36,679 bases of DNA from Deltaproteobacteria bacterium (GCA_034670305.1 JAXMNT010000068.1:1-36679), one strand, 5' to 3'. Counted from the first letter of the stretch, positions 11,496-36,552 are shown. The notes: generated by a model from the sequence alone, not told the origin. Translations and numbers: made by a program.

Positions 11496-11535
11496 CCCAC
11501 TTCGTACGACCGAACCTCCGCTGCGGATCGCCGAC

Positions 11536-18353: not shown

Positions 18354-18364
18354 AGCCTAGTCAA

Positions 18365-20290: not shown

Positions 20291-20490
20291 CAGGTCGCGA
20301 AGAGCGACCTGCTCCCTTGCCCTTGCCCTTGCCCCTGCCCTTGCCCGCGTCGGGCAGTGACCGTCGGAGCCAGAGGTCGGAGCACTCCAGGAGTTGGTCG
20401 CGATGCGTCTCCATCGACCGTTGATCCGCGGGCAAGGCGGGCAAAGGCAGGGGCAAGGGCACGGGGCTGCCTGGTGAGTCGCTCTGCTAG
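20287..20490. mobile_element. MITE-like element filling a convergent intergenic region
   Basis: Ends are CTAGCAG...CTGCTAG, with inverted GGCAAG tracts inside; the left part matches 54-119. Confidence 0.6.
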
Positions 20491-22268
20491 GGGCGGGCGG
20501 GGGAGGTGATGCGCAGCGGGAGGGCCGCGGCGAGGGTCCATTGGTCGGGGAAGAGCCAGACCGATTCGCGGGAGAGGACTTCGACGTCGCCGCCGAGGCG
20601 CCCCACCACCTCGAACACGACTTCGCGGCCTCCGGCGGGCACTGGGATGTTGCGCATGGACGCGAACGGCAGTCCGGCGATCGACAAGCTCTCGGTTCGA
20701 GACACACACAAGGCGCCGACCCCGAGCTCGTAGAGCCTGATCTGAACGTCGTCGGCACCAACCGCCGCCAACGGGTCCAAACTCCCGCACTCGTTGAGGG
20801 GGAGGACGAGGCCCGCGGTCCCTGGCGCGGTCGAGGTCGTCATCAGCAGTTCGTCGAGCGCGTAGATCGTCCGGCCCTCACTCGCGGTGAACAGCTGGGT
20901 CACCGTCGTGCCGACGCCGGCCCGGGTGTGGCGCATCGAGAACCGCTGACCGACGCGCAGATCCACGAGGACCTCGCCACTGGCCACCGGCTTCACCTCG
21001 CAGCGCGGATCGAACGCACACTCGGCGCCCGGTACGCCGTCCCAGATCTCGACGTCCCCATCCTCCACGGGCGAGAGTCCGACGCGAACCTGCATCGTCA
21101 TCGTAGACGGAGCGGGGTCGGGATCGCCGAGGTCCCAGACACCGCGACACGAGAAGTCGCAACCGACCGTTCCGCAGACGTCGCCCGCCACCACCTGCGC
21201 GTCGGTGTAGCCGCCTTCGTCCAGGTCTCCGTCGCAGTCGTTGTCGACTCCGTCGCAGTATTCGAGGGCGCCGTCATACGCGAGCGGGTCGTCGTCGTCG
21301 CAGTCCGTCTTCGGGAAAGGCCCGCCCATGCAGACGTCGTCGATCGCCACCTGCGAGTCGCCGTCGGCGTCCTCCGGTCCGCCCGCGTCGCAGTCGCGGC
21401 GGTCGCCGTCGCACTCGTCGGGCGCGCCGGGGTACACCTCGGCTCGGTCGTCGTCGCAGTCGTTGCCGAGCGGGCAGGACTCGTCGTTGTGGCGGTCGAA
21501 GCCGTCGGAGTCGCCGTCGAAAGGAGACGCGGTGTCGTCGTTGCAGTCGTTGTTGCCGAAGTCGTCGCAGACTTCGCTGACGCCGGGGTTCACGTAGCCG
21601 CGGGTGTCGTCGCAGTCGCGGTCGTTCTCACTGAAACCGGCCGGCTGGGAGCACGCCATGGTCGACTCGCCGTCGGGGTCGCCGAAGTCGTCGCCGTCCT
21701 CATCGGCGTAGTAGGTCGTCGCCGCGCCTTCGTCGGTGACCCCGTCGCAGTCGTCGTCCGTGTCGTTGCACGACTCCGTTTGCCCGGGCCGGACGTTGCC
21801 GTTGCCGTCGTTGCAGTCCTCTCCGCAGTTGCCTTCGTTGCAGCAGGCCGAGTCGCCGACCCCGTCGCCATCGCTGTCGCGGAACCCGAACGTGGTGGGG
21901 TCGCAGTCTTCGTCCACGTCGTCCGCGTCGCAGATCTCCGTGTTGCCCGGGAAGCGGTTCGGGTCGCTGTCGTCGCAATCGGTGCCGCCACAGACCATCG
22001 AGGCCGCGCCATCTCCGTCCGCGTCGGCCGCGACTTCGCAGTCGGCGCAGCGGTCGGCGTCTTCGTCGCACGCCCCGGTGCAGGGCGCGTCGCCCGGTTG
22101 GCACACCCCACCGACGCAGGTCTCGACCCCATTGCAGAAGAGATCGTCGTCGCAGTCCGTACAGACCGCGCCGTCGGACCCGCCGTCCATCGGGACCATC
22201 GAGTCGTCGTCGCCGCAGCCGAAGAACAAACCACACACCACAAGGAGCACACAGGAGCCTGAACGCAT
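20487..22268 (-). CDS. Large Cys/Asp-rich lipoprotein with MopE-like repeats
   Basis: FFGC-GDDD lipobox; many DCDD...PG..E.C...D.DCDG units; similar to 17060-17638. Confidence 0.85.
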   Translation of the reverse strand: MRSGSCVLLVVCGLFFGCGDDDSMVPMDGGSDGAVCTDCDDDLFCNGVETCVGGVCQPGDAPCTGACDEDADRCADCEVAADADGDGAASMVCGGTDCDDSDPNRFPGNTEICDADDVDEDCDPTTFGFRDSDGDGVGDSACCNEGNCGEDCNDGNGNVRPGQTESCNDTDDDCDGVTDEGAATTYYADEDGDDFGDPDGESTMACSQPAGFSENDRDCDDTRGYVNPGVSEVCDDFGNNDCNDDTASPFDGDSDGFDRHNDESCPLGNDCDDDRAEVYPGAPDECDGDRRDCDAGGPEDADGDSQVAIDDVCMGGPFPKTDCDDDDPLAYDGALEYCDGVDNDCDGDLDEGGYTDAQVVAGDVCGTVGCDFSCRGVWDLGDPDPAPSTMTMQVRVGLSPVEDGDVEIWDGVPGAECAFDPRCEVKPVASGEVLVDLRVGQRFSMRHTRAGVGTTVTQLFTASEGRTIYALDELLMTTSTAPGTAGLVLPLNECGSLDPLAAVGADDVQIRLYELGVGALCVSRTESLSIAGLPFASMRNIPVPAGGREVVFEVVGRLGGDVEVLSRESVWLFPDQWTLAAALPLRITSPARP

Positions 22269-22373
22269 GCGGCCAGCCTATCCGAAGATGGCTGGCCGAA
22301 CGAACTCCGTTTCGGTGAGGCCGGATGCCGGTCTCACTCGTTCGACTTCGCTTCACGCGAAATCGGCAAACGG

Positions 22374-23075
22374 TCAGGCCTTGGCGGACTTGCGTCCGCG
22401 CATTCGGCCGACGAAGAACGCGAGCAGGAACACGACGAAGAGCGCGATGCCGCCGCCGATCATGAAGTACTGGCGCTGCATGTCCAAGATGGGGTTGTCG
22501 AACATGCTCGAGGAGTAGCTGAACGAACCGATGCGCCACGTGCCGTCGTCGTTGCGCAGCAAGGTCGTGACCCAGACCGCCTTCACGTCGAACTCGGTGC
22601 CATCGCTGAGCTCGTAGTGTCCGTCGCTCTGGCCGAAGGCGATGGCGCTGCGTTGGCCCTCCGGACCTCCGTGAAGGATCGAGAGATCGTCCGCCTCGAA
22701 GGTGGTGCGGATGTCGGCGAGAAACGCGTCGGGACCCACCAGCATGCGCTCGTAGTACGCACGCACTTCGTCCGGACCGCGCACGATCGTTCCGTTCATC
22801 GGGGTGAAGATCACGTTCTCGTCGAGAGCGCCGACGATCGCGTCGATGTCCTTCTCGTTGAGCCCGCGCTCCATCTCGCCGTGGAAGGCACGCAGCTCGT
22901 TGTGGATCTCCTCCACGCTCGGGCCCGGGTCCACTGGCGCAGGCGGCGGCACTCTCGCGACTTCGGGCTGCTCGGCGTCGCCGGCTTCGCCTTCGGTTGC
23001 TTCGGATTCGGGCTCCTGCGCGTGGACCGTGGCGGTTGTGAGCAAGAGGAGGGCGGCAAGGGACAGGTGCTTCAT
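22374..23075 (-). CDS. SnoaL/NTF2-like (YybH) protein with signal peptide and C-terminal TM, copy B
   Basis: Signal peptide, VIFTPMNG..VRGPDEVRAY, WRIGSFSYS and a C-terminal TM; ATGA overlap with the upstream gene. Confidence 0.8.
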   Translation of the reverse strand: MKHLSLAALLLLTTATVHAQEPESEATEGEAGDAEQPEVARVPPPAPVDPGPSVEEIHNELRAFHGEMERGLNEKDIDAIVGALDENVIFTPMNGTIVRGPDEVRAYYERMLVGPDAFLADIRTTFEADDLSILHGGPEGQRSAIAFGQSDGHYELSDGTEFDVKAVWVTTLLRNDDGTWRIGSFSYSSSMFDNPILDMQRQYFMIGGGIALFVVFLLAFFVGRMRGRKSAKA

Positions 23076-24547
23076 GGGGTCTCCGTGCGCCACACCGCGG
23101 CGCGTTCTTGGGGTTCGGGCAGGAGCCCAAAGGCGGACACGTATCGGGTGCCCGCATAGGTTCGGATCGAGCGCGCAAACATGCGCAGCGCGCGGTGGCC
23201 AGCGCGCCCTTCGAGTACGGAAAGCAGTTCGTCGGTGGCGTCGAGCGCGCGCTGCGCCGCTTGATACTCGCGGTGCATCCACGAGCGGACGGCGTCGGTG
23301 CCGAGCAGTTCTTGGAAGCGCGATGACGGATCGGCGAGCGAAGCGCCTTCGGCCACCGCTTGTTCCACGACTTCCCGCGGCACGAGGTAGAGCCCCTTCT
23401 GAAGGTCCTCTTCCAGATCGCGCATCGTCGAACACCACGCGAACGCGTCGAGCAGCGCCGGCGCGTCGTCGCTGCGCAGCTCCGCGCCCCCCGCGGTCAA
23501 CATGAGGTCGACACTCAATGCGAACGTCTCGCGAAGCTGCGCCCGCATCTCCGACTCAGGCAGCGCACATTGGTCCAGCACCCGCTGCCGGTCGCGCTGC
23601 ATCACCCGGATGAGCTGGGCGGCCTGCGCAAGCGCGTGGGGACCGCCGGCTCGGCCGAGGTCCTCATGAAACGCGCGGGCCAATCGATCGAGCGGCTCGT
23701 CTCCGAACTCCGCGCCTTCGAGCTGCTCGAGCAACGACTGCACCACGTCGAGCGGCTCGCCCTCGCACGCGCGGTCTCCATCGAGCAGGTCGTCGACCAC
23801 CTGCAGAAACGCAAACCCGGTCCGAAGCACGCGGCGTTTCCGCCAGCGGCCAAGCGACTGCGCCGTGAGCGCGACGCCGATCAGCGCGTAGCGCCGGTGC
23901 CGGCGGGCGAAAGCGTAGAAGTTCTCGTAGCAGAGCAGCTCCACGTCGAAGGCATCGACCAGCCGCTCTTCGCGTCGCAGCGCAACCATCCACGTGCCGA
24001 CCGCGAGGGCGGCGCCTGCGACCACGTCGAGCAGGTGGTGCTCGTGGATCAACATCGTGCTCGCGGCGATGCCGAGCGCCCACCCGCCGACCACGAACCG
24101 CGCGAGCAAGCCGCGGTCGCGACCGAACGCGAGCGCACCGGTCACCGCGAACGCGACGTGCAGGCTCGGGAGGAAGTTGCGCTCGAGGTTGATGGTGTCC
24201 GCGATGGCGAACGCCATGGTCGCGTCGGCGCGCACCGGGAACGAGGTCTCGACCGGCAGCACGACGAAACAGAGCGCACCGAGCACGGTCTGGAGCGTCA
24301 GCGCGACGAACATCGGGACCATCTTGCGCCAGCCGATCGTCAGCGGCGCGAGCACGAGCAGGAAGTTCATCGAGAGGTAGATCCACGCCGCCGCACTGAC
24401 GTACGGGATGGCCTGCTCGAACCCGAAGTCGACGTGGATGCGCCAGGGAACGAGGCCACTGAGCGCGCTCGCCGCGCCGTAGAACGTGACGAAGATCAGC
24501 GTGAACGCACCAGCGAGGAACCAGGCGCGGCGGTCGAGCGGTTTCAT
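23072..24547 (-). CDS. PAP2-family membrane domain fused to a squalene/phytoene-synthase-like domain
   Basis: PAP2 motifs NFLPSLH and HEHHLLDV; isoprenoid-synthase motifs VDDLLDGD (DDxxD) and MRDLEEDLQKG. Confidence 0.75.
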   Translation of the reverse strand: MKPLDRRAWFLAGAFTLIFVTFYGAASALSGLVPWRIHVDFGFEQAIPYVSAAAWIYLSMNFLLVLAPLTIGWRKMVPMFVALTLQTVLGALCFVVLPVETSFPVRADATMAFAIADTINLERNFLPSLHVAFAVTGALAFGRDRGLLARFVVGGWALGIAASTMLIHEHHLLDVVAGAALAVGTWMVALRREERLVDAFDVELLCYENFYAFARRHRRYALIGVALTAQSLGRWRKRRVLRTGFAFLQVVDDLLDGDRACEGEPLDVVQSLLEQLEGAEFGDEPLDRLARAFHEDLGRAGGPHALAQAAQLIRVMQRDRQRVLDQCALPESEMRAQLRETFALSVDLMLTAGGAELRSDDAPALLDAFAWCSTMRDLEEDLQKGLYLVPREVVEQAVAEGASLADPSSRFQELLGTDAVRSWMHREYQAAQRALDATDELLSVLEGRAGHRALRMFARSIRTYAGTRYVSAFGLLPEPQERAAVWRTETP

Positions 24548-25527
24548 GTCTGGGCCTCCACGACTCGGGTGCTCGGAAGCGCAGCTTCGGACGATGCGCC
24601 TTCAGGGGCGGCCGCGAGCTCCGCGAGGAAGTCGGCCTCCTGCACCGGACCGCGCCACATGCGCAGCCACACCCGCCAGAAGCTCGGGCGCTCGCGCCGT
24701 TCGTCGACGAGCGCCGGCAGCTGCACCCAGGACGCCTTCGGCTCCCGGTGGTGTGCGAGGTGCAGGTGGTAGTTGAGGAAGAACGCGCGGGTCAGCACCG
24801 AGACCCGCAGGTCGTGCGCGCCGTCGCGGGGGTCGAGCGGGCTGAAGGCGTGGTCCGCGTACTGGAGCGAACTCCACTGCAGACCGAAGGCGGCGTAGCA
24901 GGCGAGCCAACCGACAAGACTCAAGTCACAGAAGACGAAGAGCGCGGCTTGCAGCGCGAAGGCGGCGGCGATCTCGAGCCGGGCGCGGACGGGCGGGATG
25001 CGATCGAGCGCTTCGAGGTACGCGCTGGAACTCGTCTGGGTGGAGACCTGGCCGCCGTCGCGCAAGGACCGCGTCGCGAGTGCGCGCGGGATGAACAGAA
25101 ACGCCACCGCGCCGAAGACCGCCACGACCCAGTAGACGCCGGTGAGAATCGCATACCACTGGGCGCGCTTGAGCCATGCGACGTCGCCTTCGTGGAGAAT
25201 GTCGAACTGCTCGAGCGCAGAGCGGTTGTTGCGGTGGTGGGTCAGATGAAACGCGCGCTGCATCAACAGGCCCGTGGGAAAGAACACCCCGGCCCAGCGC
25301 CCGCCCCACTCGTTGGCCGCGCGGCGCGAGAAGAGCACCCCGTGCACCGCTTCGTGGAAGAGCGAGAAGAGGGTGTTGGCGGTGAACGAGAAGGTCAGCG
25401 CGCAGAGCGCGATCTCCCACACCGCGGTGGCGTGCGAGGCGCGGTGCAAGAGCGCGACGCTCGCTGCGGAAGCAAGCAGCAGCACCGCGGCGTTGACGGC
25501 GTTCAGGCGCGTGGGACGCTCAGCCAT
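24544..25527 (-). CDS. Membrane fatty-acid desaturase/hydroxylase family protein
   Basis: His boxes HEAVH, HLTHH and HLAHH, plus TM segments. Confidence 0.9.
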   Translation of the reverse strand: MAERPTRLNAVNAAVLLLASAASVALLHRASHATAVWEIALCALTFSFTANTLFSLFHEAVHGVLFSRRAANEWGGRWAGVFFPTGLLMQRAFHLTHHRNNRSALEQFDILHEGDVAWLKRAQWYAILTGVYWVVAVFGAVAFLFIPRALATRSLRDGGQVSTQTSSSAYLEALDRIPPVRARLEIAAAFALQAALFVFCDLSLVGWLACYAAFGLQWSSLQYADHAFSPLDPRDGAHDLRVSVLTRAFFLNYHLHLAHHREPKASWVQLPALVDERRERPSFWRVWLRMWRGPVQEADFLAELAAAPEGASSEAALPSTRVVEAQT

Positions 25528-26632
25528 GGGCCACCTGCGGGCGCTCGACGGCGTGATCGGCGTGGTCGATGTGATCGGTCGCCTCGACCTGCGGCGCATC
25601 GGGGGACGTGGCGACTTCGCCCGACTCGGAGTCGCTCGTTCGCGCTCCCGACGTCAGAAGCGGCCCGGTGCGCAGGCCGCGCAGGAACGCCGCCATGGCG
25701 CGCACGCCGACGTCGTCCACGTCGACCCGCAGGCGCATGCCTTCGACGACGCCGAAATCCTTGCGCAAGAACGCGGTGAAGAGCCACCGGGTCACGCGCA
25801 GTCGAAGCGCGGTCCACAGCGCGGAGACGATTGGCACCTGCAGCCGGTTGCGGGTGATGCCGAACGCGCCGAACGCGCGTACCCCGTCCGGGGTCGGCAA
25901 GAGCCCGAGCACCGCGCTCGTGGTCCGGGACTGGATGCGGCTCTGCACGACGACGTTCGGTCCCCTGCACGTCTGGGTGACTTCGATCCGGTCGCCGCTG
26001 AGCCAGCGCATCACTCGGTCGGCGAAGCCACCACCCGACACCCGCGACACGTAGCGCAGTCGAATGCGGCCCGGCTCGGTCTCGATCGTCGGGGGTTCGA
26101 CGAGCGTCCGGTGATGCACCGCCGACAGGTGCGTCAGGTCGAACCCGTTGACGACCATCGCGAGCCACTCGGTCGGCAGCTCGATCGGGGCCGCACTGAT
26201 CCAGGCGAGCGCCTCGGGGCTCTCGGGCAGCGGCAGGGGCGGACGTTCGGAGGCATCGCCGAAGTAGACGAAGACGAGACCGAGTCGCTCTTGCACCGTC
26301 CACGCGCCCGCGCGGCAGCGGCCTGGTTGTTCGGCGCCGATCGTCCAGTGGTGCAGTGGACACCGCAGCGCCTCACCGACGACCTCCCCGTGTTTCAAGT
26401 GCGCGCCCATGTGGGGGCAATGCGCGTCGATCGCGTGCAGCCCGCCGCCTTCGCCGCGGTAGACGACGAGCGACTGGCCGGCCAGCTCGACCGGCAACAC
26501 CCGGCCGCCCGTCAGGTCGCGGCTGCGCGCCACGGTGTACCAGGCGTGCGGCCAGGTCGGCAGCTCGGTGGGCCTGCGTGCGTCGTCACCCTGGGGCAAC
26601 ACCCGAAGGGCGCGTTTGGATCCACCGCTCAT
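25520..26632 (-). CDS. Rieske non-heme iron oxygenase alpha subunit
   Basis: Rieske cluster motif CPHMGAHL...CPLHHW; mononuclear Fe site NGFDLTHLSAVH. Confidence 0.9.
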   Translation of the reverse strand: MSGGSKRALRVLPQGDDARRPTELPTWPHAWYTVARSRDLTGGRVLPVELAGQSLVVYRGEGGGLHAIDAHCPHMGAHLKHGEVVGEALRCPLHHWTIGAEQPGRCRAGAWTVQERLGLVFVYFGDASERPPLPLPESPEALAWISAAPIELPTEWLAMVVNGFDLTHLSAVHHRTLVEPPTIETEPGRIRLRYVSRVSGGGFADRVMRWLSGDRIEVTQTCRGPNVVVQSRIQSRTTSAVLGLLPTPDGVRAFGAFGITRNRLQVPIVSALWTALRLRVTRWLFTAFLRKDFGVVEGMRLRVDVDDVGVRAMAAFLRGLRTGPLLTSGARTSDSESGEVATSPDAPQVEATDHIDHADHAVERPQVAHG

Positions 26633-27363
26633 GCGATGGCTTTCTTGCGACCGCCGAACTTGAGCCCGAGCAAGAACGCGAGGCCGAAGACGACGAGGAA
26701 CGCGATGATGCCGACCATCGTCATCAGCGAGCGCTGCGCGTCGAGCACCGGGTTGTCGAACATGTTCGTCGAGTAGTGGAAGCTCGCCACCCGCCACGCA
26801 TCGCCGTCGCGGACCATCGTGCCGGACCACCGCGCGACCACGTTCATCGCGGTGCCGTCCGTGAGCACGTAGTGGTCGTCGCTCTGCCCGAACGCGATCG
26901 CGACGTCGTCTTTCAGCAGGATGGAGAGGTCGTCGGGTTCGAACTCGGTGGTGACGGATTCGACCACGCGGTCCGGCCCTTCGAGCATGGTCTCGAAGTA
27001 CGCGCGCACTTCGTCCGGTCCGCGCACCGTGTCACCGTTCATGGTGGTGAACACGATGTCGTCCGTGATGTTGGCGACGATGGTGTCGATGTCCCGCTCG
27101 TTGAGCGCGCGCTCCATCTTGTTCTTGAGCGCGCGCAACCCCTCGTGGAGAACTTCGGTGCTCGGAGCCTCCGGTTCCGCGGGCGCTTCCAGTTCGGGCG
27201 GCGTCTCGGGCTCCGGCGGCGTGTCCTCGGCGGGTGGCTCGGGCACGACCTTGGTGGGCCGGACGACGCGTGGGCGGCTGGGGCCGATGTCGGCGGAGGC
27301 GACGGAGACGATGGAGACGGTCGCGAGCAGACAACCGAGGAGGATCAGAGGGCGGGTGCGCAT
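26629..27363 (-). CDS. SnoaL/NTF2-like (YybH) protein with signal peptide and C-terminal TM, copy A
   Basis: Paralog of 22374-23075; IVFTTMNGDTVRGPDEVRAY and WRVASFHYS. Confidence 0.8.
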   Translation of the reverse strand: MRTRPLILLGCLLATVSIVSVASADIGPSRPRVVRPTKVVPEPPAEDTPPEPETPPELEAPAEPEAPSTEVLHEGLRALKNKMERALNERDIDTIVANITDDIVFTTMNGDTVRGPDEVRAYFETMLEGPDRVVESVTTEFEPDDLSILLKDDVAIAFGQSDDHYVLTDGTAMNVVARWSGTMVRDGDAWRVASFHYSTNMFDNPVLDAQRSLMTMVGIIAFLVVFGLAFLLGLKFGGRKKAIA

Positions 27364-29015
27364 GGGGGCTCCGTGGGCGGGTGAGACAGATCCTGGAACG
27401 CGCCCGGGAGGTGGGCGGACCAGTCGAGTCGTTCGTCGAGGCAGGTCGGTTTGAGGTCGCCGAGCGTTCGGCCTTCGGCGTGAAGGCGCCGCAGGTGGGC
27501 GTGGTGGGCGTCGGGGGCGACGCGGAAGATCCGAGGCGGTCCGAGCTGACCGAGGTCGCGGGCGTAGGCGTAGTGCGGGTTGGCGCGAAGCCGCGCATCG
27601 AGCGCTGTGGGGTCCACCGAGGCGTCGACGAAGAGCACGTAGCGCGGTGCGGTGGAACCGGGTTCCATGGCCGACGGAGCCAACATCGAGAACGCGGCGG
27701 CCGGACACAAGGCGCCGAGCACCTGGGCCACGAACGACTCGTGGAGCTTCTCGCCGACCCGGTCGACGACCCGATCGCAGCGCCCCACGAATCGGATGGA
27801 CGGAGTCGCGCCGACGAACCCATCGACCCGCACCCGGTCGCCGGTGCGCATGCGGCACAAGCCGCCGGAGGTGGTCACGACCAGCTCGTACTGCGCGCCC
27901 TGCTGCGCTTCGTCGACCGTTCGGCACCGGCCCTCGTCGTCGCGCAGCTCGAGGAAGTGGGAGGCCACCGCGAGCGGATGGCGGCCAGCGAACGGAATGG
28001 AGGCGAACGCTTCGGTCGAGACGAGGCCCTTCGGCGCGAGGACGGCAGGCGCGACGAGCTCGGCGAGCGCACGGGCGGGTCCCGCGGCGGCGCCGTCGGC
28101 CCAGGCGCTCACCACGCGGAGCTTCGGCCAGACGTCGGTGGGCCGGGCGTGCACACCGAGCGACCGCAGCCGATCGGCGCGGGCCCGGTCCGGCTCGGAG
28201 GTGCACGCGCGGCGGACATCGTTCGGCACGTCTTCGTCGAACACCGCGGAGCACGCGCCGGTGCGCACGTCTTCGACGAGCTGCCTCCAAACCGAGGTGC
28301 GGCTCTCCCAGAGCAAGGTGAAGAAGCTCGGATGCCACACCGAGATCAACCGAAGGTCGGCGCGCCGCAGAAGCGTGAGCAGGGTGGCGTACTGGAAGGT
28401 GCCGAGTGGCCGCACGCCTCGAAGCGCGGCGGGCGCGGCGAAGACCCGCTCCGCCAACGGCGCGAGCAGGCCGAGGTAAGACGCATCGCTCTCGAACCCA
28501 ACCGGAACCGAAGAGACGACCTCGGTCTCGAACGCGGGCGAGACACTCCAGTACGCGGAGCCACCGCGGAGTGTCCGGTGCTGGGTGTGCATGTCGGCGA
28601 TCCAGGGATCGATCGCGGCGCGAAACTCCGAGCGAAGCGGCCGGGTGACGGGCACGAGTTTCGGAGCGGTGGTGCTGCCGCTGGTCGGGAGCAGCCGCTC
28701 CACCCGCGCGCTGGTCAACACGCCGCGCGCGCCGGTGCGGATCCGGTCGACGAAGGGGCGGAAGTCCTCGGCGCTGCGCTCCGGGACCCGGCGCTGGAAC
28801 TGGGCGACCGAAGACACGTCGCCGAGCCCGTGGAGCCGGCCGAACTCGGACTTCGAGCTCTGCCGAAGGATCGCGCGCAGACGTTTCTCCTGCGCCCGTT
28901 TCGGATCCCGCAGCGCGCGGCGAAACCGGCGGTGCCCCGCCTCGGCCGCGAGCAACCACGCGTTGTTTATCAGCGTCGGGTTCATGAGCGTCGGGTTCAT
29001 GAGCGTCGGGTTCAT
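27345..29015 (-). CDS. GH3-family (acyl-acid amido synthetase-like) adenylating enzyme
   Basis: PTSGSTTAPKLVP, KGLVSTEA, YELVVTTSGGLCRMRTGDRV and FVGR...GEKL. The start is chosen at the ATG overlapping the stop of an upstream mini-ORF. Confidence 0.85.
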   Translation of the reverse strand: MNPTLMNPTLMNPTLINNAWLLAAEAGHRRFRRALRDPKRAQEKRLRAILRQSSKSEFGRLHGLGDVSSVAQFQRRVPERSAEDFRPFVDRIRTGARGVLTSARVERLLPTSGSTTAPKLVPVTRPLRSEFRAAIDPWIADMHTQHRTLRGGSAYWSVSPAFETEVVSSVPVGFESDASYLGLLAPLAERVFAAPAALRGVRPLGTFQYATLLTLLRRADLRLISVWHPSFFTLLWESRTSVWRQLVEDVRTGACSAVFDEDVPNDVRRACTSEPDRARADRLRSLGVHARPTDVWPKLRVVSAWADGAAAGPARALAELVAPAVLAPKGLVSTEAFASIPFAGRHPLAVASHFLELRDDEGRCRTVDEAQQGAQYELVVTTSGGLCRMRTGDRVRVDGFVGATPSIRFVGRCDRVVDRVGEKLHESFVAQVLGALCPAAAFSMLAPSAMEPGSTAPRYVLFVDASVDPTALDARLRANPHYAYARDLGQLGPPRIFRVAPDAHHAHLRRLHAEGRTLGDLKPTCLDERLDWSAHLPGAFQDLSHPPTEPPCAPAL

Positions 29016-29076
29016 GAGCGTCGGGTCCACAGCGTCGGGTTCCACAGCGTCGGGTTCCACAGCGTCGGGAGCGTCG
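28971..29076. repeat. 15-bp tandem repeat containing one 14-bp unit
   Basis: AGCGTCGGGTTCATG x3, AGCGTCGGGTCCAC (14 nt), AGCGTCGGGTTCCAC x2. Confidence 0.9.
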
Positions 29077-29083
29077 AGGTCAC
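29012..29083 (-). CDS. Possible 23-aa mini-ORF MTSTLPTLWNPTLWNPTLWTRRS, or the frameshifted N-terminus of GH3
   Basis: Its GTG overlaps the upstream TGA (GTGA), and its own TGA overlaps the GH3 ATG (ATGA). Confidence 0.4.
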   Translation of the reverse strand: MTSTLPTLWNPTLWNPTLWTRRS

Positions 29084-29820
29084 GTTGCGACGGCCTTCTG
29101 CGGAACCTGCATCGCGTCCCGCTCGAACGCGCGCACCATGCGCCAGCCGGCGCGGGTGAGGTTGTCGTCGGACAGATCGGCGAGGCACGCGAGTTCGTCG
29201 CCTTCGTCCGCGTTCGGGTTGAGGGTGTGGAAGAGGTCGACGTGCTTGTCGCGCCGCACGCCGGGCAAGTCGCGAATCTCCGGCCGGAGCCGCTGGGGTT
29301 CGGTCAGATGCACGAGACCGGTCCGGTGGTCGAAGCCGTCCCCGTACCGCGCGTGGGCCAGCTCGTGCAGGAGGTTGCGTGCCAGCGCCGGCGACCCCGT
29401 GTGGTGCGGTACGAAGCGGCGGAAGAACACCGGCAGGAACCGGTAGGTGCGCGGACCACTGCAGATGAGCAGCCACAGCAGCCGTTTGCCTTGGAGTTCG
29501 TCGCGCAGTGCGCGCACCGCACCGATCCACTGGCTGGCCAAGGACAGACTGCCCCAGTGCGAGCGCTCGACGATCGTGTCACCGCTGTGGAGCACGTACA
29601 GATCGCGGGCGGGGTGGTGGGTGATCGCGAGGGTGGTGAAACCGCGCAGGGTTCCGCCTTCGTCACGCAGCAGAAGCGCGTGATCCTTGTTCTCGAGATC
29701 GCGCTCGAACCCGGCGCGGGTCACGCCTTCGAAGTTGCGATCGAGCAGGGCGCACATCGACCACAGATCGACGCGGCTGAGCTCGGGGACCGCCACGCAC
29801 TCTGCGAAGAGCCGGGTCAC
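29080..29820 (-). CDS. GNAT-like acyltransferase-fold protein
   Basis: GTGA coupling; FERDLENKD...LRGFTT...SGDTIVERSHWGS...WLLICSGPRTYRFLP pattern. Confidence 0.6.
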   Translation of the reverse strand: MTRLFAECVAVPELSRVDLWSMCALLDRNFEGVTRAGFERDLENKDHALLLRDEGGTLRGFTTLAITHHPARDLYVLHSGDTIVERSHWGSLSLASQWIGAVRALRDELQGKRLLWLLICSGPRTYRFLPVFFRRFVPHHTGSPALARNLLHELAHARYGDGFDHRTGLVHLTEPQRLRPEIRDLPGVRRDKHVDLFHTLNPNADEGDELACLADLSDDNLTRAGWRMVRAFERDAMQVPQKAVAT

Positions 29821-30953
29821 AGCGTCGCCACTTCGATCCACGGCAGGTTGCCGCCAAGCGCTTCGGTGGCACCCACCGCGCGATCCCAACCCACCGCGTA
29901 GAGCATCGAGCGGTAGGGCCGCGCCGAGAGCTTCTTGCGGAGCGCGTCGCGGAGCGGGTGGTCGACGGCCAGCGCGAACGCGAGCTGCTCGAGGCCCCGC
30001 GCCCGGGCTTGGATCTGAAGCGACCGCACGAGGGCGAGCGCGCCTTCGAAGTCGTCCGCGTCGAACGCGAGGTGCGAAGCGTACGCCATCTTCAAGGTGG
30101 ACCCCGCCGGCGGGAGCGCCGGTTGGCGCGCGAGCCGAAGGCCGAGGTTCACCAAAGGCCGGCTCCAGCGCAGCGCCGGCTTGTAGCCCGTGACGACCGC
30201 TTGTTTGAACGCGCGCTGGTCCCACACCGCGCCCGTCGCGCGGATGCGACCGTCGCCGTGACTCAGCACGCGCAGGTGTTCGATCTCGAGTCCACGGGTC
30301 GCCGACGATCCGAAGTCGACCTTTTGCCACGCGGGTGCGAACGCATGGCGGCGGTGGTGCGCGTTGAGGTGCTGTACGAACGAATGGAGCGCCTCCGGCT
30401 CGAGCGCAGAAGCCGCATCGTGGGCGGACGTGCGGGTCGAGCACACGAGCGTCTCGATCTCACCGACCGGCGTGTACTTCGGCAGGCCCGGCAGCCCGCG
30501 CTCGAGCAACCGGCGCGCCGGCTCGTTGTCCGAGACGATGGCGGTCAAATCGAACGGGAGCTCGTCCGGAAGTCGGCCCGCGTCGAGCTCCGCGAAACCG
30601 GCCCGAAGACGTTTGATGCCGCAGCTGCGGCCGCGGGTGCGGAGCTGGCCGAGGTAGCCGAGCGACGCGACCTGGCTGCGGTGAAAGACCCGGCGGACCG
30701 AACGGGTGCCCATGCCGACCAACGCGCCCTCGCGGTCGCGCGCCAGAAAGGTCTGGTGGCGGCTGCCTTCGATCGACGCGGCGTGCTCGAGGTTCGGCTC
30801 GCGGGTGAGCGCCACCTGAATGAGCCCGTCCATCGCACTCTCGCGCAGGAGCGCCCGCACCTCGGCGTCGGCTTCCGGTGTGAGTCCGGGCCGGGTGGGT
30901 TCGGATGGCGCGTGGGCCTGCGCATGGGCATGCGCGTGGGCGGCGGCGCTCAC
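29817..30953 (-). CDS. GNAT-like (probably tandem) protein
   Basis: GTGA coupling; LVGMGTRS...GYLGQLR...AIVSDNEPARRLLE (GNAT motif A/B-like). Confidence 0.6.
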   Translation of the reverse strand: MSAAAHAHAHAQAHAPSEPTRPGLTPEADAEVRALLRESAMDGLIQVALTREPNLEHAASIEGSRHQTFLARDREGALVGMGTRSVRRVFHRSQVASLGYLGQLRTRGRSCGIKRLRAGFAELDAGRLPDELPFDLTAIVSDNEPARRLLERGLPGLPKYTPVGEIETLVCSTRTSAHDAASALEPEALHSFVQHLNAHHRRHAFAPAWQKVDFGSSATRGLEIEHLRVLSHGDGRIRATGAVWDQRAFKQAVVTGYKPALRWSRPLVNLGLRLARQPALPPAGSTLKMAYASHLAFDADDFEGALALVRSLQIQARARGLEQLAFALAVDHPLRDALRKKLSARPYRSMLYAVGWDRAVGATEALGGNLPWIEVATL

Positions 30954-32506
30954 GACGCGCTCAAGCGGATGAGCGGGCTCCGCGTCTGGGTGGTGGCTTT
31001 GAGAAGCGGCCCGGTCACGCCCGCGTCTCCGAGCGGCAGCCCGTGGCGGCCTTTCACGTCGACCTGGTGCATCGCGTTGATGAGCACGAAGTAGAACGCC
31101 ATCAGCGGGTCCTGCAGGTTGGTCGGGTGCCGGAAGCGCCGGCCGATCGACTTCCATCCGTAGAACTTCTTGCGCGCGTCGATGCAGAGCCGCGCCAGTT
31201 CTTCCGGCGCCATGCGGGCGGGCACGAAGGGCACGTCGCCGTAGAGGTAGCGGTCGTCGAGCCACCACGGATCCATCCGCAGGCGGCCTTCCTTCTTGAG
31301 CCGGTCGTAGAGCGGGGTGCCCGGGAACGGCGTGATGTGGTTGAAGGCCGAGATGAAGAGGCCCTGGTCTTGGGCGAACTCGAGCGTGTTCTCGAAGGTC
31401 TCGGCGGTGTCGTGGTCGTACCCGAACACGAACGTGCCGTAGACCCGGATGCCGTGGCGCTGGAAGTTCGCGAGCGCGGCGGGCGGACCACCGCGGGTGG
31501 CGTTGAACCCCTTGCGCATCTTCTTGAGCGTCGCGGCGTCGAGCGACTCGAACCCGACCAGCACGCCCTGGCAGCCGGAGCGTTTCATCAGGGAGAGCGC
31601 TTCCTCGTCGAACGCAACGTCGATGCTCGCCTGACTGATCCAGCGGACCTTCGTGCCGCGGCGGCGCAGCGCGATGAGCGCACGCATGAAGTCTTTGGCC
31701 TGCGCCAGGTCGCTCGTGATGTTGTCGTCGATGAAGAAGACGAGCTGACCGCGTCGATGGATGCGGGTGAGTTCGGAGATGACCTGATCGATGCGCCGGT
31801 GGGTCTGGGTGCCGTCGTGGAACGCTTGCACCGCGCAGAACTCGCAGCGGTAGCGGCAGCCACGCGCGAACTCGATGAGCCGGATCGGCAGGTAGTGTTT
31901 GCCGCGGAAGATGCTGCGGTCCGGCACCACGGTGCTGGGATCGGGTCGCGCCGAAGCCTTGTAGAACTTCTGCGGCGTGCCGTGCCGGTAGTCGTCGAGC
32001 AGCTCCGCGAAGACGCTCTCCGCTTCGCCGACCACCACCGAGTCCGCGTAGAGCGCGACCTCGTCCGGACACAGGGTCGCGTGGAAACCGCCCATGACGA
32101 CCGGCACGCCGCGGCGGCGGTACTCGCTGGCGATCTGGTAGCAGCGTTTCGCGGTGTAGGTCTCGATGCTGATCGCGACGAGATCGGTCGGCGCGTCGTA
32201 GTCGATCGGTTCGAGACGGTCGTCAAAAAACGTGCGGCCGATGTCGGCCGGTGTGAGCGCGCTGATGAGCGCCGACGGGATCGGCTCCATCTTCCAGGTG
32301 TGCATGTACGCGCGGGAGCCGGCCCGGCGACCGACGCAGGGATGAATGATGGTGAGGTGGAAGGGCGTCGCGCGGACGCGTTTTCGAGACGGGGCGCCGA
32401 GTCGAATCAAGGTGCCCTTCGTGTCGGAACCGGTGCTGGCGCAGGGCGATTCTGGGGTCGGCGCAGTGGAAGTGGGGGTGTCCACGGTGTGGGTCGAGTC
32501 GGTCAT
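30950..32506 (-). CDS. B12-binding radical SAM protein 2
   Basis: Cobalamin domain DLVAIS...VVMGGFHAT...GEAE; RGCRYRCEFC (CxxxCxxC); FFIDDN; VGFES; TPFPGTPLY. Confidence 0.93.
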   Translation of the reverse strand: MTDSTHTVDTPTSTAPTPESPCASTGSDTKGTLIRLGAPSRKRVRATPFHLTIIHPCVGRRAGSRAYMHTWKMEPIPSALISALTPADIGRTFFDDRLEPIDYDAPTDLVAISIETYTAKRCYQIASEYRRRGVPVVMGGFHATLCPDEVALYADSVVVGEAESVFAELLDDYRHGTPQKFYKASARPDPSTVVPDRSIFRGKHYLPIRLIEFARGCRYRCEFCAVQAFHDGTQTHRRIDQVISELTRIHRRGQLVFFIDDNITSDLAQAKDFMRALIALRRRGTKVRWISQASIDVAFDEEALSLMKRSGCQGVLVGFESLDAATLKKMRKGFNATRGGPPAALANFQRHGIRVYGTFVFGYDHDTAETFENTLEFAQDQGLFISAFNHITPFPGTPLYDRLKKEGRLRMDPWWLDDRYLYGDVPFVPARMAPEELARLCIDARKKFYGWKSIGRRFRHPTNLQDPLMAFYFVLINAMHQVDVKGRHGLPLGDAGVTGPLLKATTQTRSPLIRLSAS

Positions 32507-34020
32507 GCGGCCTCCTGGTCGTCGTCGGTTCGGGTCGGGCGGGGGTCGCCGGTGGGTGCGCCTTGCCAGAGCGGCAGGTGTGGTTTTCGGGGCGCGTCGC
32601 CAATACGGATGTCGGCCGCGCGGATCTCGGCCGTGCGGACTTCGGCCGGTGCGCGGTCCGCGCCACGCCCCCGTGCAGCCGCGAGCGCGAGCGGATCGAC
32701 GGCGAGTCCCCAATCGCACGTGTAGAACTTCGACAGCCGGTGCGCGTAGTGCCGGTACCCGAGGTTGGTCAGCATCGCGACGTGCAGAGGCGCCGCGGTG
32801 TGGCGCAGCCGGCGCGCGATGTTGGTCCAGCTGTAGGCGTGTTTCCACGCCGCTTCGGTCGCGCGCTCGAGCGCCGATGCGCTCATCTTCTTCGGCTGGA
32901 AGACGACGTGCTGCCCGTCGTACTGCTCCCAGTGCCGGTGCAGAATGCGCCCTTCCGCATCGAGCCGGGCGTAGAGCGGCGTGCCCGGAAACGGGGTCGC
33001 GATCGCGAAGCGCGGCAGATCGATCTTCGCATCGACCGCGAACTGCGCGGTCTGTGCGCAGACCTCCTCGGTGTCGTCGTCGAGCCCGAAGACGAAGCAG
33101 CCCTGCACCGAGATGCGCCGCGCGTGCAGCTTCTCCACCACCGCCGCGTAGTCGTCGGGGTGGTTGAACCCTTTGCCCGCGCGCCGGAGGTTCTTCGGGT
33201 GGATCGACTCGAAGCCGAGCAAGAGGCCGCGGCAGCCCGACGCTTCGAGCAGATCGAGCAGCTCGGGATCGCGCGCGACCTTGGTGGTGACGAGGCCGTA
33301 CCACTGGATGCGGAGCGGGATGAGCGCGCGGAAGAGCTGACGCGCGTAGGGGACGTCGGAGATGAGGTTGAGGTCGACGAAGATCGCGCGTTTGGCGCGC
33401 TGCGCTTTCAGGTCGGCGACGACTTCGTGCACCGGCTTCTGAAGCGGGGTGCGCCCCCACGCCGAAGGCGCGACGCAGAACTCACACGCATGGATGCAGC
33501 TGCGGGTGGCTTCGAACACATCCGCGGTCAGGTAGTGACGCCGCGGCAGCACGGTTCGGTCGGGCAGGGGGCGGCCGGCGAGCGAGAGGTCCGCCGCTTG
33601 ATCGTAGCGGGGGCGCAGCTCTCCGCGTGCGGCGTCGCGCAAGAGCTCCGGCCAGGTGTCTTCGGCGTACCCGACCACGATGCTGTCCGCGTGGGGCGCC
33701 GCGTCTTCGGGCACGAGCGTCACGTGCGGACCCCCGAGCACGACTTGGATGCCGCGGCTGCGGAAGGTGCGGGCGAGTTCGTAGGCGCGGGAGGCGGTGC
33801 CGGTGATCACCGTCATGCCGACCAAATCCACGTCGAGCGCGTACGGATCGATGTCCGCGTGGCCTTCGTCGATGCAGGTCAACTCGACGTCGAGGTCCTT
33901 GGGGATCAACGCCGCCAGCGTCGGGAAGGTCAGCGGCATGTAGCGGAGCGACTGCTTGAAGATCCCGCTCTTGCGGTAGAGCGGCCCTTTGGGGCTCAGG
34001 AGCGCGATGCGAAGGGTCAT
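32503..34020 (-). CDS. B12-binding radical SAM protein 1
   Basis: DLVGMTV...VVLGGPHVT...GYAE; RSCIHACEFC; LGFES; TPFPGTPLY. Confidence 0.93.
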   Translation of the reverse strand: MTLRIALLSPKGPLYRKSGIFKQSLRYMPLTFPTLAALIPKDLDVELTCIDEGHADIDPYALDVDLVGMTVITGTASRAYELARTFRSRGIQVVLGGPHVTLVPEDAAPHADSIVVGYAEDTWPELLRDAARGELRPRYDQAADLSLAGRPLPDRTVLPRRHYLTADVFEATRSCIHACEFCVAPSAWGRTPLQKPVHEVVADLKAQRAKRAIFVDLNLISDVPYARQLFRALIPLRIQWYGLVTTKVARDPELLDLLEASGCRGLLLGFESIHPKNLRRAGKGFNHPDDYAAVVEKLHARRISVQGCFVFGLDDDTEEVCAQTAQFAVDAKIDLPRFAIATPFPGTPLYARLDAEGRILHRHWEQYDGQHVVFQPKKMSASALERATEAAWKHAYSWTNIARRLRHTAAPLHVAMLTNLGYRHYAHRLSKFYTCDWGLAVDPLALAAARGRGADRAPAEVRTAEIRAADIRIGDAPRKPHLPLWQGAPTGDPRPTRTDDDQEAA

Positions 34021-34034
34021 GAGGGGTTCTCATG

Positions 34035-34050
34035 AGCAAGCTTCGGGCCG
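34035..34050 (-). promoter_or_regulatory. Sigma54 -24/-12 promoter of the radical SAM operon
   Basis: Minus strand CGGCCCGAAGCTTGCT has GG-N10-GC spacing with TTGC. Confidence 0.7.
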
Positions 34051-34133
34051 GCGGCGGTTCTCCGCGTCTTCTTTGAAATCACTGTGCTTTTCCCGCGGTT
34101 CGACGGGCCGAGCACACGATCGATGCCAGGCGG

Positions 34134-34150
34134 GGTACACACGATGTACA
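34134..34150. promoter_or_regulatory. Palindromic enhancer similar to 8694-8714
   Basis: GGTACA-CACGA-TGTACA. Confidence 0.6.
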
Positions 34151-34244
34151 CGCCGTGGAATCGCCCACCCGGTCCCTGCGCCATCTGATCGATGCGCACC
34201 GAACCGGTCAAGAAACCGGCGGAAGGGCGGCGCTGAGAATGCGT

Positions 34245-35366
34245 CTAGGAAAGCGGCGGAGAGAACGGGCTCACGGGGACCGAGTCTTCGGTGCGGACCG
34301 GGCCGACCCGCGCACCGGTCTTCTTCCACCGCGAGAAGAACGGCGCCTGGTCGCTGCTGTGAGCGCAAAGCGAACCGACCGCCTCCCCAGTCCAGGTGCG
34401 CGCTTCGCGGTGGGGAAGCTGCACCAGCACCGAGTGGAGTTCGGTCTCCACGTCGGTCCCGATCACGGTGCGGGGGATCCAGACCGACTGCGGATCGGAC
34501 ACCCGCGCACGCCCGCGCAGGGGATCGTAACGGAGCGCGTCGACGCCGAAGTCGAGCGTGGTCAGGTAGCGCCCGCGGTGTTCGTGGAACCGGGTGCGCC
34601 CGGATTGCACGAAGGTGAACCCGAACCCGGTGAGTCCGACGGTCCCGAGCCGTGTGTTGGGGGTGCCCTGGAGCTCGAGACCGGTGGTCCGCGGCGCGCG
34701 CCGGCGGGCACTGCCAACCGCGCGGCTCTCCTGGCGCTTGGTGCGGAGGTGCTGGTCGTCGCCCGAGAGCGCGGTGACGAACACCTCCAGATCGAAGTCG
34801 AGTTTCTCGTTGAGCGGCTTCTCTTCGACGAAGGGCACACCCCCGCGGGTCGGCGTCCACGCGCGATCGATCTCGACGACGACTTCGAAGACGTGGTGGT
34901 CACCGTCCCGGACCGGCGGCTCGAGCCGCACCGCGAGGTGGCAAGGCCACAGCCCGTTCGAGTTGCACGGATTGTCCGGCGACTGGTGTTCGTCGCAGCA
35001 CTTGGTGTCGAGCCGGATCCCCGCAAGCAGGACCTCCGTCGGCACACCACCGGTTGGGATCCGAAGCGTCTTCGACTGTCGGGATCGTGCGATCGGTACC
35101 GGCAGCGGATCGATCGCATCGCGCCACTGAAACGCCGCCGTGGCCCGCTGGGTGGTGACGCCCGGCGACACGAGCGCGCCCCAGCGCCCGACCGGCTTCA
35201 TGTAGTTGCCATCGACGCCGGTCGACTGAGCGAAGTGAAACCGCGGATCATCCACCGCCTCCGACAGGTAGCTGTGCAGCCGGGAGATCCGATGCGGCAA
35301 CCGAAACCCCATCACCTCCCGCAACCACTCGTGCCGAAACCCCCGCCAGAAGAACACCGGATCCAT
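34245..35366 (-). CDS. Hypothetical protein
   Basis: Long ORF with normal composition starting MDPVFFWRGF; no family recognised. Confidence 0.7.
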   Translation of the reverse strand: MDPVFFWRGFRHEWLREVMGFRLPHRISRLHSYLSEAVDDPRFHFAQSTGVDGNYMKPVGRWGALVSPGVTTQRATAAFQWRDAIDPLPVPIARSRQSKTLRIPTGGVPTEVLLAGIRLDTKCCDEHQSPDNPCNSNGLWPCHLAVRLEPPVRDGDHHVFEVVVEIDRAWTPTRGGVPFVEEKPLNEKLDFDLEVFVTALSGDDQHLRTKRQESRAVGSARRRAPRTTGLELQGTPNTRLGTVGLTGFGFTFVQSGRTRFHEHRGRYLTTLDFGVDALRYDPLRGRARVSDPQSVWIPRTVIGTDVETELHSVLVQLPHREARTWTGEAVGSLCAHSSDQAPFFSRWKKTGARVGPVRTEDSVPVSPFSPPLS

Positions 35367-35483
35367 CGCGCCCGAGAGTCCCCCGGGAGCCCACCCAGCG
35401 CAATGTGGATGCCGGATGCCGGCATCCACCTGCGGCCTTCGGCCGCGATCCCGACTGCAACCGTGGCGCCAACAGTGGCGGCG

Positions 35484-35712
35484 GCGGAAGCGGTCGCGGT
35501 CGCGGAAGCGGTCGCGGTCGCGGTCGCGGTCGCGCGGTCGGAAGCCGACGCCGAACCTGACGCCGACGCTTGAAGCCGAAGCCGAGGCCGAAGCCGAGGC
35601 CGAAGCCGAGGCCGAAGCCGAAGCCGAAGCCGAAGCCGAAGCCGAAGCCGAGGCCGAAGCCGAGGCCGAAGCCGAGGCCGAAGCCGAGGCCGAAGCCGAG
35701 GCCGAAGCCGAG
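35484..35712. repeat. Hexamer arrays (GCGGTC/GCGGAA)n then (GCCGAR)23
   Basis: Directly visible; 35575-35712 is 23 units of GCCGAA or GCCGAG. Confidence 0.92.
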
Positions 35713-35734
35713 GCCCGCGACTCGCGCGGGCCTC
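35710..35734 (-). terminator. GC-rich hairpin just after the four-helix-bundle stop
   Basis: GAGGCCCGCG-ACTCG-CGCGGGCCTC; no U-tract, so termination is not certain. Confidence 0.4.
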
Positions 35735-35743
35735 GCGCCGCTC

Positions 35744-36398: not shown

Positions 36399-36552
<154 letters not shown>

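Follow-up and report, generated by a model that had tools for sequence, protein, structure and literature searches.

A ten-gene operon with B12-binding radical SAM, GH3 and GNAT-fold genes in deltaproteobacterial DNA, a candidate pathway to an amide-linked membrane lipid

The stretch of DNA analysed here, called the window throughout, is 36,679 nucleotides (nt) long, comes from Deltaproteobacteria bacterium (GCA_034670305.1 JAXMNT010000068.1:1-36679) and has a G+C content of about 68%. Analysis of third-position GC and of open reading frames (ORFs), followed by Pfam and NCBIfam scans, places ten consecutive genes on its minus strand, running from 34020 to 22374, in agreement with the gene set and order of an initial annotation made from the sequence alone. 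These ten genes are a genuine operon and one conserved biosynthetic unit, in which two B12-binding radical S-adenosylmethionine (SAM) proteins, two proteins with a predicted GNAT fold and a GH3-family enzyme are followed by five genes of putative tailoring function. In operon order they are:

32503..34020, minus strand: gene 1, rSAM1, class-B (B12-binding) radical SAM protein, 505 amino acids (aa)
30950..32506, minus strand: gene 2, rSAM2, class-B radical SAM protein, paralogue of rSAM1, 518 aa
29817..30953, minus strand: gene 3, orf3, predicted tandem-GNAT, N-myristoyltransferase (NMT)-like acyltransferase, 378 aa
29080..29820, minus strand: gene 4, orf4, predicted single-domain GNAT-fold protein, family not modelled in Pfam, 246 aa
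27345..29060, minus strand: gene 5, acyl-acid amido synthetase of the GH3 family, 571 aa (start GTG 29060) or 556 aa (start ATG 29015)
26629..27363, minus strand: gene 6, SnoaL/DUF4440 protein with a signal-like N-terminus and a C-terminal membrane segment, 244 aa
25520..26632, minus strand: gene 7, Rieske non-haem iron oxygenase, 370 aa
24544..25599, minus strand: gene 8, membrane His-box desaturase/hydroxylase (FA_desaturase), 351 aa, or 327 aa from ATG 25527
23072..24547, minus strand: gene 9, PAP2_3 membrane domain (residues ~1-195) fused to a divergent squalene/phytoene-synthase (SQS/PSY)-like domain (residues ~200-491)
22374..23075, minus strand: gene 10, second SnoaL/DUF4440 protein, likewise signal-like at the N-terminus and with a membrane segment at the C-terminus, 233 aa

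Eight of the nine gene junctions overlap, six of them by the 4-nt ATGA/GTGA type, the GH3/SnoaL junction by 19 nt and the Rieske/desaturase junction by 80 or 8 nt, as set by the start codon chosen. The initial annotation had every junction overlapping, which fails at one place: orf4 and GH3 are separated by a gap of 19 nt (GTG 29060) or 64 nt (ATG 29015). Two plus-strand ORFs within the operon region match no family, and no polyketide synthase (PKS), nonribosomal peptide synthetase (NRPS) or acyl carrier protein (ACP) domain is present in the ORFs scanned (those of at least 90 aa), as had been annotated. None of the ten genes reaches the curated NCBIfam cut-off for any characterised enzyme, and full-text literature searches turned up no paper that combines this gene set, bearing out the earlier statement that the gene set could not be matched to a characterised pathway; relatives of its proteins are named only generically, for example 'hypothetical protein' or 'GH3 auxin-responsive promoter family protein'.

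A profile scan for orf4 across species-representative genomes found 478 loci, the best 80 of which were taken with 10-kb flanks and compared with the window proteins by tblastn; gene calls in the high-GC loci are crude. Twenty-two of the 80 loci carry rSAM/orf3 genes (rSAM-type) and 58 do not. The five genes rSAM1-rSAM2-orf3-orf4-GH3 are collinear on one strand in 17 of the 22 rSAM-type loci, spanning 4.5-5.5 kb; L022 has a span of 10.7 kb, its top rSAM1 match being an upstream paralogue. Because this five-gene core is collinear in 17 of 22 loci, the arrangement is far beyond chance. The remaining five rSAM-type loci comprise three short contigs (L007, L009 and L056; 3.8-8.5 kb), L041 with no orf3 match at 50% coverage, and L072 with orf3, orf4 and GH3 in a different order and no rSAMs; orf3 is found in 21 of the 22. 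The carriers are labelled Acidobacteriota (Thermoanaerobaculia, Vicinamibacteria and others), Gemmatimonadota, Verrucomicrobiota and a Phycisphaerales metagenome-assembled genome (MAG) of the Planctomycetota, and across these phyla the copies of rSAM1 and rSAM2 are 54-70% identical to those of the window (62-70% for rSAM1 and its homologues in rSAM-type loci). Conserved synteny, which the initial annotation had named as a check on its reading, was therefore found, with the core in the same order in at least four phyla.

Around the core lies a more variable shell. In ten annotated loci, genes on either side of the core encode PAP2_3, FA_desaturase, Rieske, SnoaL/DUF4440, AurF-like di-iron and additional B12-binding radical SAM proteins (Pfam), and among the 22 rSAM-type loci shell homologues were counted for PAP2_3 (8), desaturase (11), Rieske (9), SnoaL (8) and AurF-like proteins (6). 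The fullest counterpart of the window is L032, an Acidobacteriota MAG, with nine of the ten genes in order at 42-70% identity, the PAP2 fusion (52%) included; it has no separate second SnoaL gene, the only match overlapping its one SnoaL gene. An HMM search for the SQS/PSY-like domain, stand-alone copies included, found it in one of the 80 loci, namely L032. The genes flanking the operon in the window, a MopE-motif protein and a Ser-rich protein, have homologues in none of the 80. The number of B12-binding radical SAM genes per cluster ranges from none (cyanobacteria) to about four, one or two extra genes standing beside the conserved pair at L022 (35-5866), L001 (4065-5768) and L045 (14871-16727). 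Two taxonomic labels are at odds with the orf4 sequences and may reflect mis-binned MAG contigs: L045 is labelled Bifidobacteriaceae, has 73% G+C and an orf4 that groups with Vicinamibacterales, and L060 is labelled Acetobacteraceae with an orf4 inside the Nostoc clade.

The GH3 protein possesses all three Pfam domains of its family, N (5.7e-42, 144.4 bits), M (1.2e-13, 51.4 bits) and C (1.2e-6, 29.6 bits), each against a gathering threshold of 23.6. It features TSGST at residue 126, STE at 348 and RTGD at 405, which are the forms taken by the GH3 nucleotide-binding motifs. Its closest solved structures are plant GH3 amido synthetases, with rice GH3.8 at the top (7dk8, 3.6e-15). Its sole NCBIfam match is OlsH (NF052613), at 57.4 bits in two partial stretches against a cut-off of 620, which places it outside the OlsH lyso-ornithine lipid synthetases. 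That GH3-like enzymes have three nucleotide-binding motifs is stated in the OlsH study (PMC12493201). The 5' end of the gene carries a 15-nt tandem repeat at 28965..29069 (7.1 copies, 91% matches, Tandem Repeats Finder score 140), which encodes a VEPDA/MNPTL pentapeptide run and contains the in-frame starts GTG 29060 and ATG 29015, 29000 and 28985; the 556-aa form from ATG 29015 is the version in the protein collection. An alignment with the fusion protein P0125 shows that conserved GH3 sequence begins near residue 35 of the 571-aa model, after the repeat-encoded residues; the pentapeptide run has no counterpart in the portion of P0125 that aligns. P0125 is a natural, metagenomic orf4-GH3 fusion of 759 aa with orf4-like sequence at residues 8-228 and GH3 at 246-751 (39% identity each), in the order of the operon genes, and was the single match in a search of longer proteins for orf4. 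As separate genes, orf4 and GH3 adjoin each other in every locus with the five-gene core. A complex prediction for GH3 (residues 35-571) and orf4, both entered as alignments, returned a score of 0.00 and a mark of 0.32 and speaks neither for nor against binding.

Neither orf3 nor orf4 has a Pfam match at E<=1 or an NCBIfam match at E<=0.01, and the 459 relatives of orf4 at E<=1e-3 are, where named, all 'hypothetical protein'. Both proteins are predicted to carry the GNAT fold. Modelled with AlphaFold2 (AF2) from an alignment of relatives, orf4 is a single GNAT domain (pLDDT 93) whose Foldseek matches are GNATs, including YhbS (4rs2, 8.5e-7), NatD and AAC(2'); the corresponding model of orf3 is a tandem GNAT (pLDDT 85), and the Foldseek PDB matches listed for it are N-myristoyltransferases only, enzymes that use long-chain acyl-CoA (E ~1e-11, TM 0.51-0.59). 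A protein-atlas look-up, useful as a lead only, agrees with this. At the level of sequence, the profile of orf3 relatives found nothing among PDB sequences at E<=1, the Pfam NMT model matches neither orf3 nor its relatives, and no GNAT Pfam model is matched by orf3 or orf4; among relatives there are weak matches to Acetyltransf_9 (3 of 22 for orf4) and Acetyltransf_1 (6 of 21 for orf3). The two GNATs of the initial annotation are thus upheld by predicted fold, one single and one tandem, and not by Pfam or NCBIfam sequence matches.

Both radical SAM proteins have the attributes of class B, namely an N-terminal B12-binding domain, a radical SAM core and a CxxxCxxC motif. The Pfam matches are B12-binding (2.4e-11), Radical_SAM (1.7e-10) and DUF4070 for rSAM1 and Radical_SAM (5.3e-15), B12-binding (5.2e-9) and DUF4070 for rSAM2; the cysteine motif reads CIHACEFC at residue 175 in the former and CRYRCEFC at residue 217 in the latter, and the two paralogues share 36% identity. 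The top NCBIfam match of rSAM1 is HpnJ (78 bits, cut-off 577.6) and that of rSAM2 is the PhpK family (104.8 bits, cut-off 600), with ApyD and other methylases of peptides made by the ribosome and altered after translation (RiPPs) also among the matches of rSAM2. Neither qualifies as a member of the HpnJ, HpnR, PhpK, BchE or ladderane radical SAM equivalogs, whose cut-offs lie at 360-650 bits. The closest solved structure to rSAM2 is the diol-dehydratase AprD4 (6fd2, 1.5e-13).

Among the five downstream proteins, the Rieske protein (Pfam Rieske, 8e-18) has both the cluster motif, CPH...CPLH at 72, and the D-x2-H-x4-H iron site, DLTHLSAVHH at 165, of a Rieske non-haem iron oxygenase; its top NCBIfam match is the sterol 4-methyl oxidase SdmA (45.9 bits against 600). 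The desaturase (Pfam FA_desaturase, 9.1e-23) shows the three boxes HEAVH, HLTHH and HLAHH and four hydrophobic segments, as expected for a membrane His-box enzyme, and its top NCBIfam match, below cut-off, is the ketolase CrtW. The two rSAMs, the Rieske protein and the desaturase all retain intact catalytic motifs. The SnoaL proteins are paralogues of each other with 49% identity: that at 26629-27363 matches DUF4440 (6.1e-11) and SnoaL_3 and has hydrophobic segments at residues 3-27 and 209-239, and that at 22374-23075 matches SnoaL_2 (2.1e-8) and has one at 201-228 (all Pfam). The signal-like start and C-terminal hydrophobic segment suggest that both are periplasm-facing, membrane-anchored proteins.

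Gene 9 combines two parts. The N-terminal part matches PAP2_3 at 31.5 bits (gathering 27), and the protein has four hydrophobic segments. PAP2 enzymes are defined by the motifs KxxxxxxRP (C1), PSxH (C2) and HxxxD (C3); PSLH and HHLLD are present, and C1 was not found in the PAP2_3 domain. The C-terminal 292 residues have 268 representatives at E<=1e-3, both stand-alone (~270-300 aa) and PAP2-fused (~470-510 aa). In an alignment of 38 members of this family DDxxD and DxxxD are invariant, and 17 of the 38 match SQS_PSY in Pfam, the window copy not being among them. The top PDB profile match of this domain is the squalene synthase HpnC (4hd1, E 0.023), and the whole fusion returned nothing meaningful against PDB by sequence. 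It is therefore reasonable to call gene 9 a PAP2-synthase fusion, as annotated, with the PAP2_3 half above gathering and the aspartate motifs invariant; the putative synthase half is divergent.

The 58 loci without rSAM genes reveal a second architecture. They are almost all labelled cyanobacterial (Nostoc, Calothrix, Tolypothrix, Microseira, Planktothrix and others), and neither rSAM genes nor orf3 occur in any of them. Two Rieske genes lie beside orf4 in 57 of the 58, a ferritin-like gene is found in 53 and an AurF-like gene in 52, and GH3 in at least 27, a lower bound, as GH3 lies near the end of the 10-kb flank. The Rieske protein of the window has a homologue in 48 of the 58 (9 of the 22 rSAM-type loci). 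In Microseira wollei (L011, 4687-18122) and Nostoc sp. C117 (L040, 20-19293) these genes form an uncharacterised cluster of about 14 genes in the order SnoaL, GT2, amidohydrolase, Mpo1-like, Rieske, orf4, Rieske, ferritin-like, AurF-like, ferredoxin, Rieske (VanA_C), FA_hydroxylase, hexapeptide transferase and GH3, interrupted in L040 by unrelated genes. The sole NCBIfam match of the FA_hydroxylase is the ornithine-lipid hydroxylase OlsE (69.7 bits against 475), that of the cyanobacterial GH3 is OlsH (27.8 bits), and the Rieske proteins reach 71-82 bits against SdmA. In a quick tree of orf4 the 58 loci and L072 form one clade (support 99), opposite the window and the other 21 rSAM-type loci (support 99); the branch of the window is long and its exact neighbour unsure. 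The cyanobacterial cluster thus resembles the window operon in orf4, GH3, a homologous Rieske oxygenase and SnoaL/DUF4440, and differs from it in lacking B12-binding radical SAMs and orf3, with di-iron and Rieske oxygenases in place of the former. Its extra genes encode three Rieske proteins, ferritin-like and AurF-like proteins, a ferredoxin, the OlsE-like FA_hydroxylase, a hexapeptide transferase, an Mpo1-like protein, an amidohydrolase and GT2.

It is proposed, as a reading about as likely to be right as wrong, that the operon is a self-contained unit whose products assemble and tailor an amide-linked membrane lipid belonging to an undescribed class. From the gene content, motifs, folds, synteny and membrane segments described above we infer substrates, order of steps and product as follows. 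GH3 would activate a carboxylic acid with ATP and join it to an amine, by analogy with OlsH, and orf4 together with the NMT-like orf3 would add one or two more acyl groups, with acyl-CoA or acyl-ACP as the donor. The pair of B12-binding radical SAM proteins may act through radical chemistry at unactivated carbons in the head group or the chain, most likely C-methylation, and hydroxylation or desaturation of the product would fall to the Rieske oxygenase and His-box desaturase. The PAP2_3 domain, fused in the window lineage to a putatively prenyl-diphosphate-binding SQS/PSY-like domain, could transfer or remove a phosphate-linked group on the outer side of the inner membrane, and the two membrane-anchored SnoaL-fold proteins may act on or bind the lipid from the periplasmic side.

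The initial annotation had pictured a methylated, oxidised amide-linked or prenyl-containing membrane lipid. Its first form is still the most economical reading: membrane segments are predicted in four of the ten proteins, and OlsH (2025), the only characterised bacterial GH3-like enzyme found in the literature searched, makes lyso-ornithine lipid. The methylation that it assumed is weakened; it is drawn from the enzyme class, in which methylation is the commonest outcome, and the family scores of 78 and 105 bits are far under the cut-offs. The prenyl-containing form is weakened as well: with the SQS/PSY-like domain in only one of the 80 related loci, that domain is best regarded as a lineage-specific accessory outside the conserved core. 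Several observations weigh against the amide-lipid proposal. The cluster holds no fatty-acid, ACP or amino-acid supply genes, and no OlsI-type alpha/beta-hydrolase is among the ten genes. The matches to OlsH, OlsE, HpnJ, PhpK, SdmA and CrtW are far under their curated cut-offs and therefore hold at superfamily level only, and the resemblance of orf3 to NMT is confined to the fold (TM ~0.55). B12-binding radical SAM enzymes also perform non-methylating chemistry, and the closest solved relative of rSAM2, AprD4, is a diol-dehydratase. The locus comparison covers the best 80 of the 478 orf4 loci. Finally, the weak top matches to HpnJ, HpnC, SdmA and CrtW, together with the SQS/PSY-like domain, suggest isoprenoid rather than acyl substrates.

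A bolder form of the amide-lipid proposal, possible but doubtful, is that the five-gene core makes an N-acylated amino or sphingolipid-like lipid with C-methyl groups or C-C links installed by the B12-binding radical SAMs, that this undescribed class is widespread, and that the cyanobacterial cluster is an O2-dependent route to a related scaffold. If so, the lipid would be widespread among phyla of soil and water, namely Acidobacteriota, Gemmatimonadota, Verrucomicrobiota, Planctomycetota and the lineage of the window itself, and environmental lipids that have yet to be assigned might derive from it.

The last of the points against an acyl product is the starting point of the best surviving alternative, in which the operon would instead tailor an isoprenoid, be it a hopanoid, sterol, carotenoid or polyprenyl lipid, with methylation or rearrangement by the rSAMs, oxidation by the Rieske and His-box enzymes, and addition of an amino acid or acyl group by GH3 and the GNATs. 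A possible product is the N-aminoacyl aminobacteriohopanetriols, known but genetically orphan: N-tryptophanyl, N-ornithinyl and N-phenylalanyl aminotriols are reported in PMC12583986, the portion of which describing them names no biosynthetic gene. This alternative would account for the family of the C-terminal domain of gene 9, with SQS_PSY in 17 of 38 members, invariant Asp-rich motifs and HpnC as top PDB match, for HpnJ, SdmA and CrtW as top NCBIfam matches of rSAM1, the Rieske protein and the desaturase, and for the 71-82 bits of the cyanobacterial Rieske proteins to SdmA. However, the isoprenoid-flavoured matches are far below cut-off (46-105 bits against 350-650) and several mainly cover the generic Rieske or rSAM core, the SQS/PSY-like domain is confined to a single related locus, and the annotated flanks of ten rSAM-type and two cyanobacterial loci contain no cyclase, hpn, crt or prenyl-synthase gene; we thus consider it unlikely, though well short of negligible.

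A soluble specialised metabolite (amino-acid-derived, phosphonate-like, siderophore-like or a peptide), built by rSAM methylation, N-acylation and GH3 ligation and then exported, is improbable. The PhpK family of P-methyltransferases is the top match of rSAM2, for which ApyD and other RiPP methylases also score, AurF-like di-iron N-oxygenase homologues are recurrent, small acids are the substrates of plant GH3 enzymes, and some loci are flanked by MacB, MFS or FeoAB genes. The transporters in the flanks vary between loci, however, and there is no PepM, NRPS, PKS or conserved transporter, whereas an integral-membrane desaturase, PAP2 and membrane-anchored SnoaL proteins recur. A comparison of 19 regions upstream of rSAM1 found no conserved small precursor ORF; only closely related locus pairs matched, and none matched the window. 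That the ten genes are not one pathway, being a chance same-strand run or two operons (the five-gene core plus an unrelated oxidative block), is very improbable, for although the downstream five genes vary among relatives and the only non-overlapping junction precedes GH3, that gap sits within the conserved core rather than at the border of core and shell, shell homologues recur beside the core in varied orders and on both sides, and nine genes are collinear in L032.

Induction via sigma54, the one regulatory claim of the initial annotation, is not supported. The presumed promoter is the intergenic region upstream of rSAM1 (34021..34244, minus strand). Its only -24/-12-like match is CGGCCCGAAGCTTGCT at 34050-34035, which has 2 mismatches, ends 15 nt before the ATG and as a promoter would give scarcely any leader; across the window as a whole, -24/-12-like matches are at chance level (108 found, 108.9 expected). 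The sole sigma54-interaction-domain activator (bacterial enhancer-binding protein, bEBP) in the window lies at 7222-8760 on the minus strand, ~25 kb from the promoter end of the operon; its match begins at profile position 22. A sigma-70-like promoter had no match in 34021-34244, a sigma-70 scan of 21900-34400 gave one promoter-like site, inside the last gene, and terminator-like sites in that interval are also at chance level (6 found, 5.2 expected).

Immediately downstream of the operon, 20487-22268 (minus strand) encodes a protein of 593 aa in which MopE-type putative metal-binding motifs recur, and an IS200-like Y1 transposase domain protein is encoded at 18356-19063 (plus strand), ~3 kb past the operon's 3' end. 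The MopE-motif protein and the G+C content of 68% hint, as no more than a guess, at a member of the Myxococcota. On the upstream side, the Ser-rich ORF at 34245-35777 contains a GAAGCC x29 array (35541-35715), and a second hexanucleotide array, CTGTCT x24.7, lies at 36405-36552. Farther away, 1614-3179 (minus strand) encodes a protein of 521 aa whose C-terminal part is an NAD:arginine ADP-ribosyltransferase (ART) domain (Pfam E 4.6e-15), and a Disintegrin and lamin-tail-domain protein (5451-7259) stands beside the bEBP. An MFS transporter fused to a PlsC-type acyltransferase domain at 8625-10760 (plus strand), read as lysophospholipid transporter/acyltransferase-like, is followed on the opposite strand by an acetoacetate-decarboxylase-like protein (10722-12092).

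The closest functional parallel to the operon is the OlsH/OlsI pathway. OlsH from Singulisphaera acidiphila forms N-acyl ornithine from a free fatty acid, using ATP and Mg (PMC12493201), and the second acyl chain is attached by its partner OlsI, an alpha/beta-hydrolase O-acyltransferase (PMC12493201; PMC12971839). Both systems have a GH3-like, ATP-dependent amide synthetase, confirmed for OlsH and predicted here, at the centre of an operon for membrane lipids, with the GH3 nucleotide-binding motifs in common and a second acyl-transfer step adjacent, and tailoring hydroxylases are known for the product class of OlsH/OlsI. The window differs in that its GH3 scores 57 bits against 620, that two GNAT-fold proteins stand in place of OlsI, and that two B12-binding radical SAM genes are attached, as in no known ornithine-lipid pathway. 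The hopanoid genes (HpnJ, HpnP, HpnR and HpnC) offer a second parallel, with B12-binding radical SAMs that act, in the window by prediction, on a membrane lipid, and a putative HpnC-like SQS/PSY-fold domain; the window proteins score 19-89 bits against cut-offs of 250-650, and the loci annotated have no shc or hpnH/G/I/K context. In the section of a 2026 review that deals with them, the hpn clusters show no counterpart of the GH3 and GNAT genes of the window (PMC13459092). The eukaryotic N-myristoyltransferases share with orf3 a tandem-GNAT architecture, predicted for orf3, over the whole length, but identity in the listed matches is 9-14% and there is no NMT Pfam match; since orf3 is a bacterial gene within a lipid-type operon, a protein N-terminus is an unlikely acceptor.

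The lipid-modifying radical SAM enzymes named in the portion of the review devoted to them are Tes, Mss, Gms, GrsA/B, Gmm, Cds, HpnH/J/P/R, Jaw5 and the ladderane enzymes, and several of the few known lipid-modifying B12 radical SAM enzymes underlie geochemical biomarkers (PMC13459092). The conserved gene order in at least four phyla and an orf4 family at 478 places point to a widespread product with no gene link so far. Identification of this product would give a function to two families without a Pfam model (orf3 and orf4), would supply a new reaction context for class-B radical SAM enzymes, and might account for membrane lipids that are still orphans in soil bacteria and cyanobacteria. By analogy with OlsH, what is new here is most likely a GH3-dependent bacterial amide-lipid pathway with a novel core composition, in a gene set that unites a GH3-like enzyme with lipid-type B12 radical SAMs.

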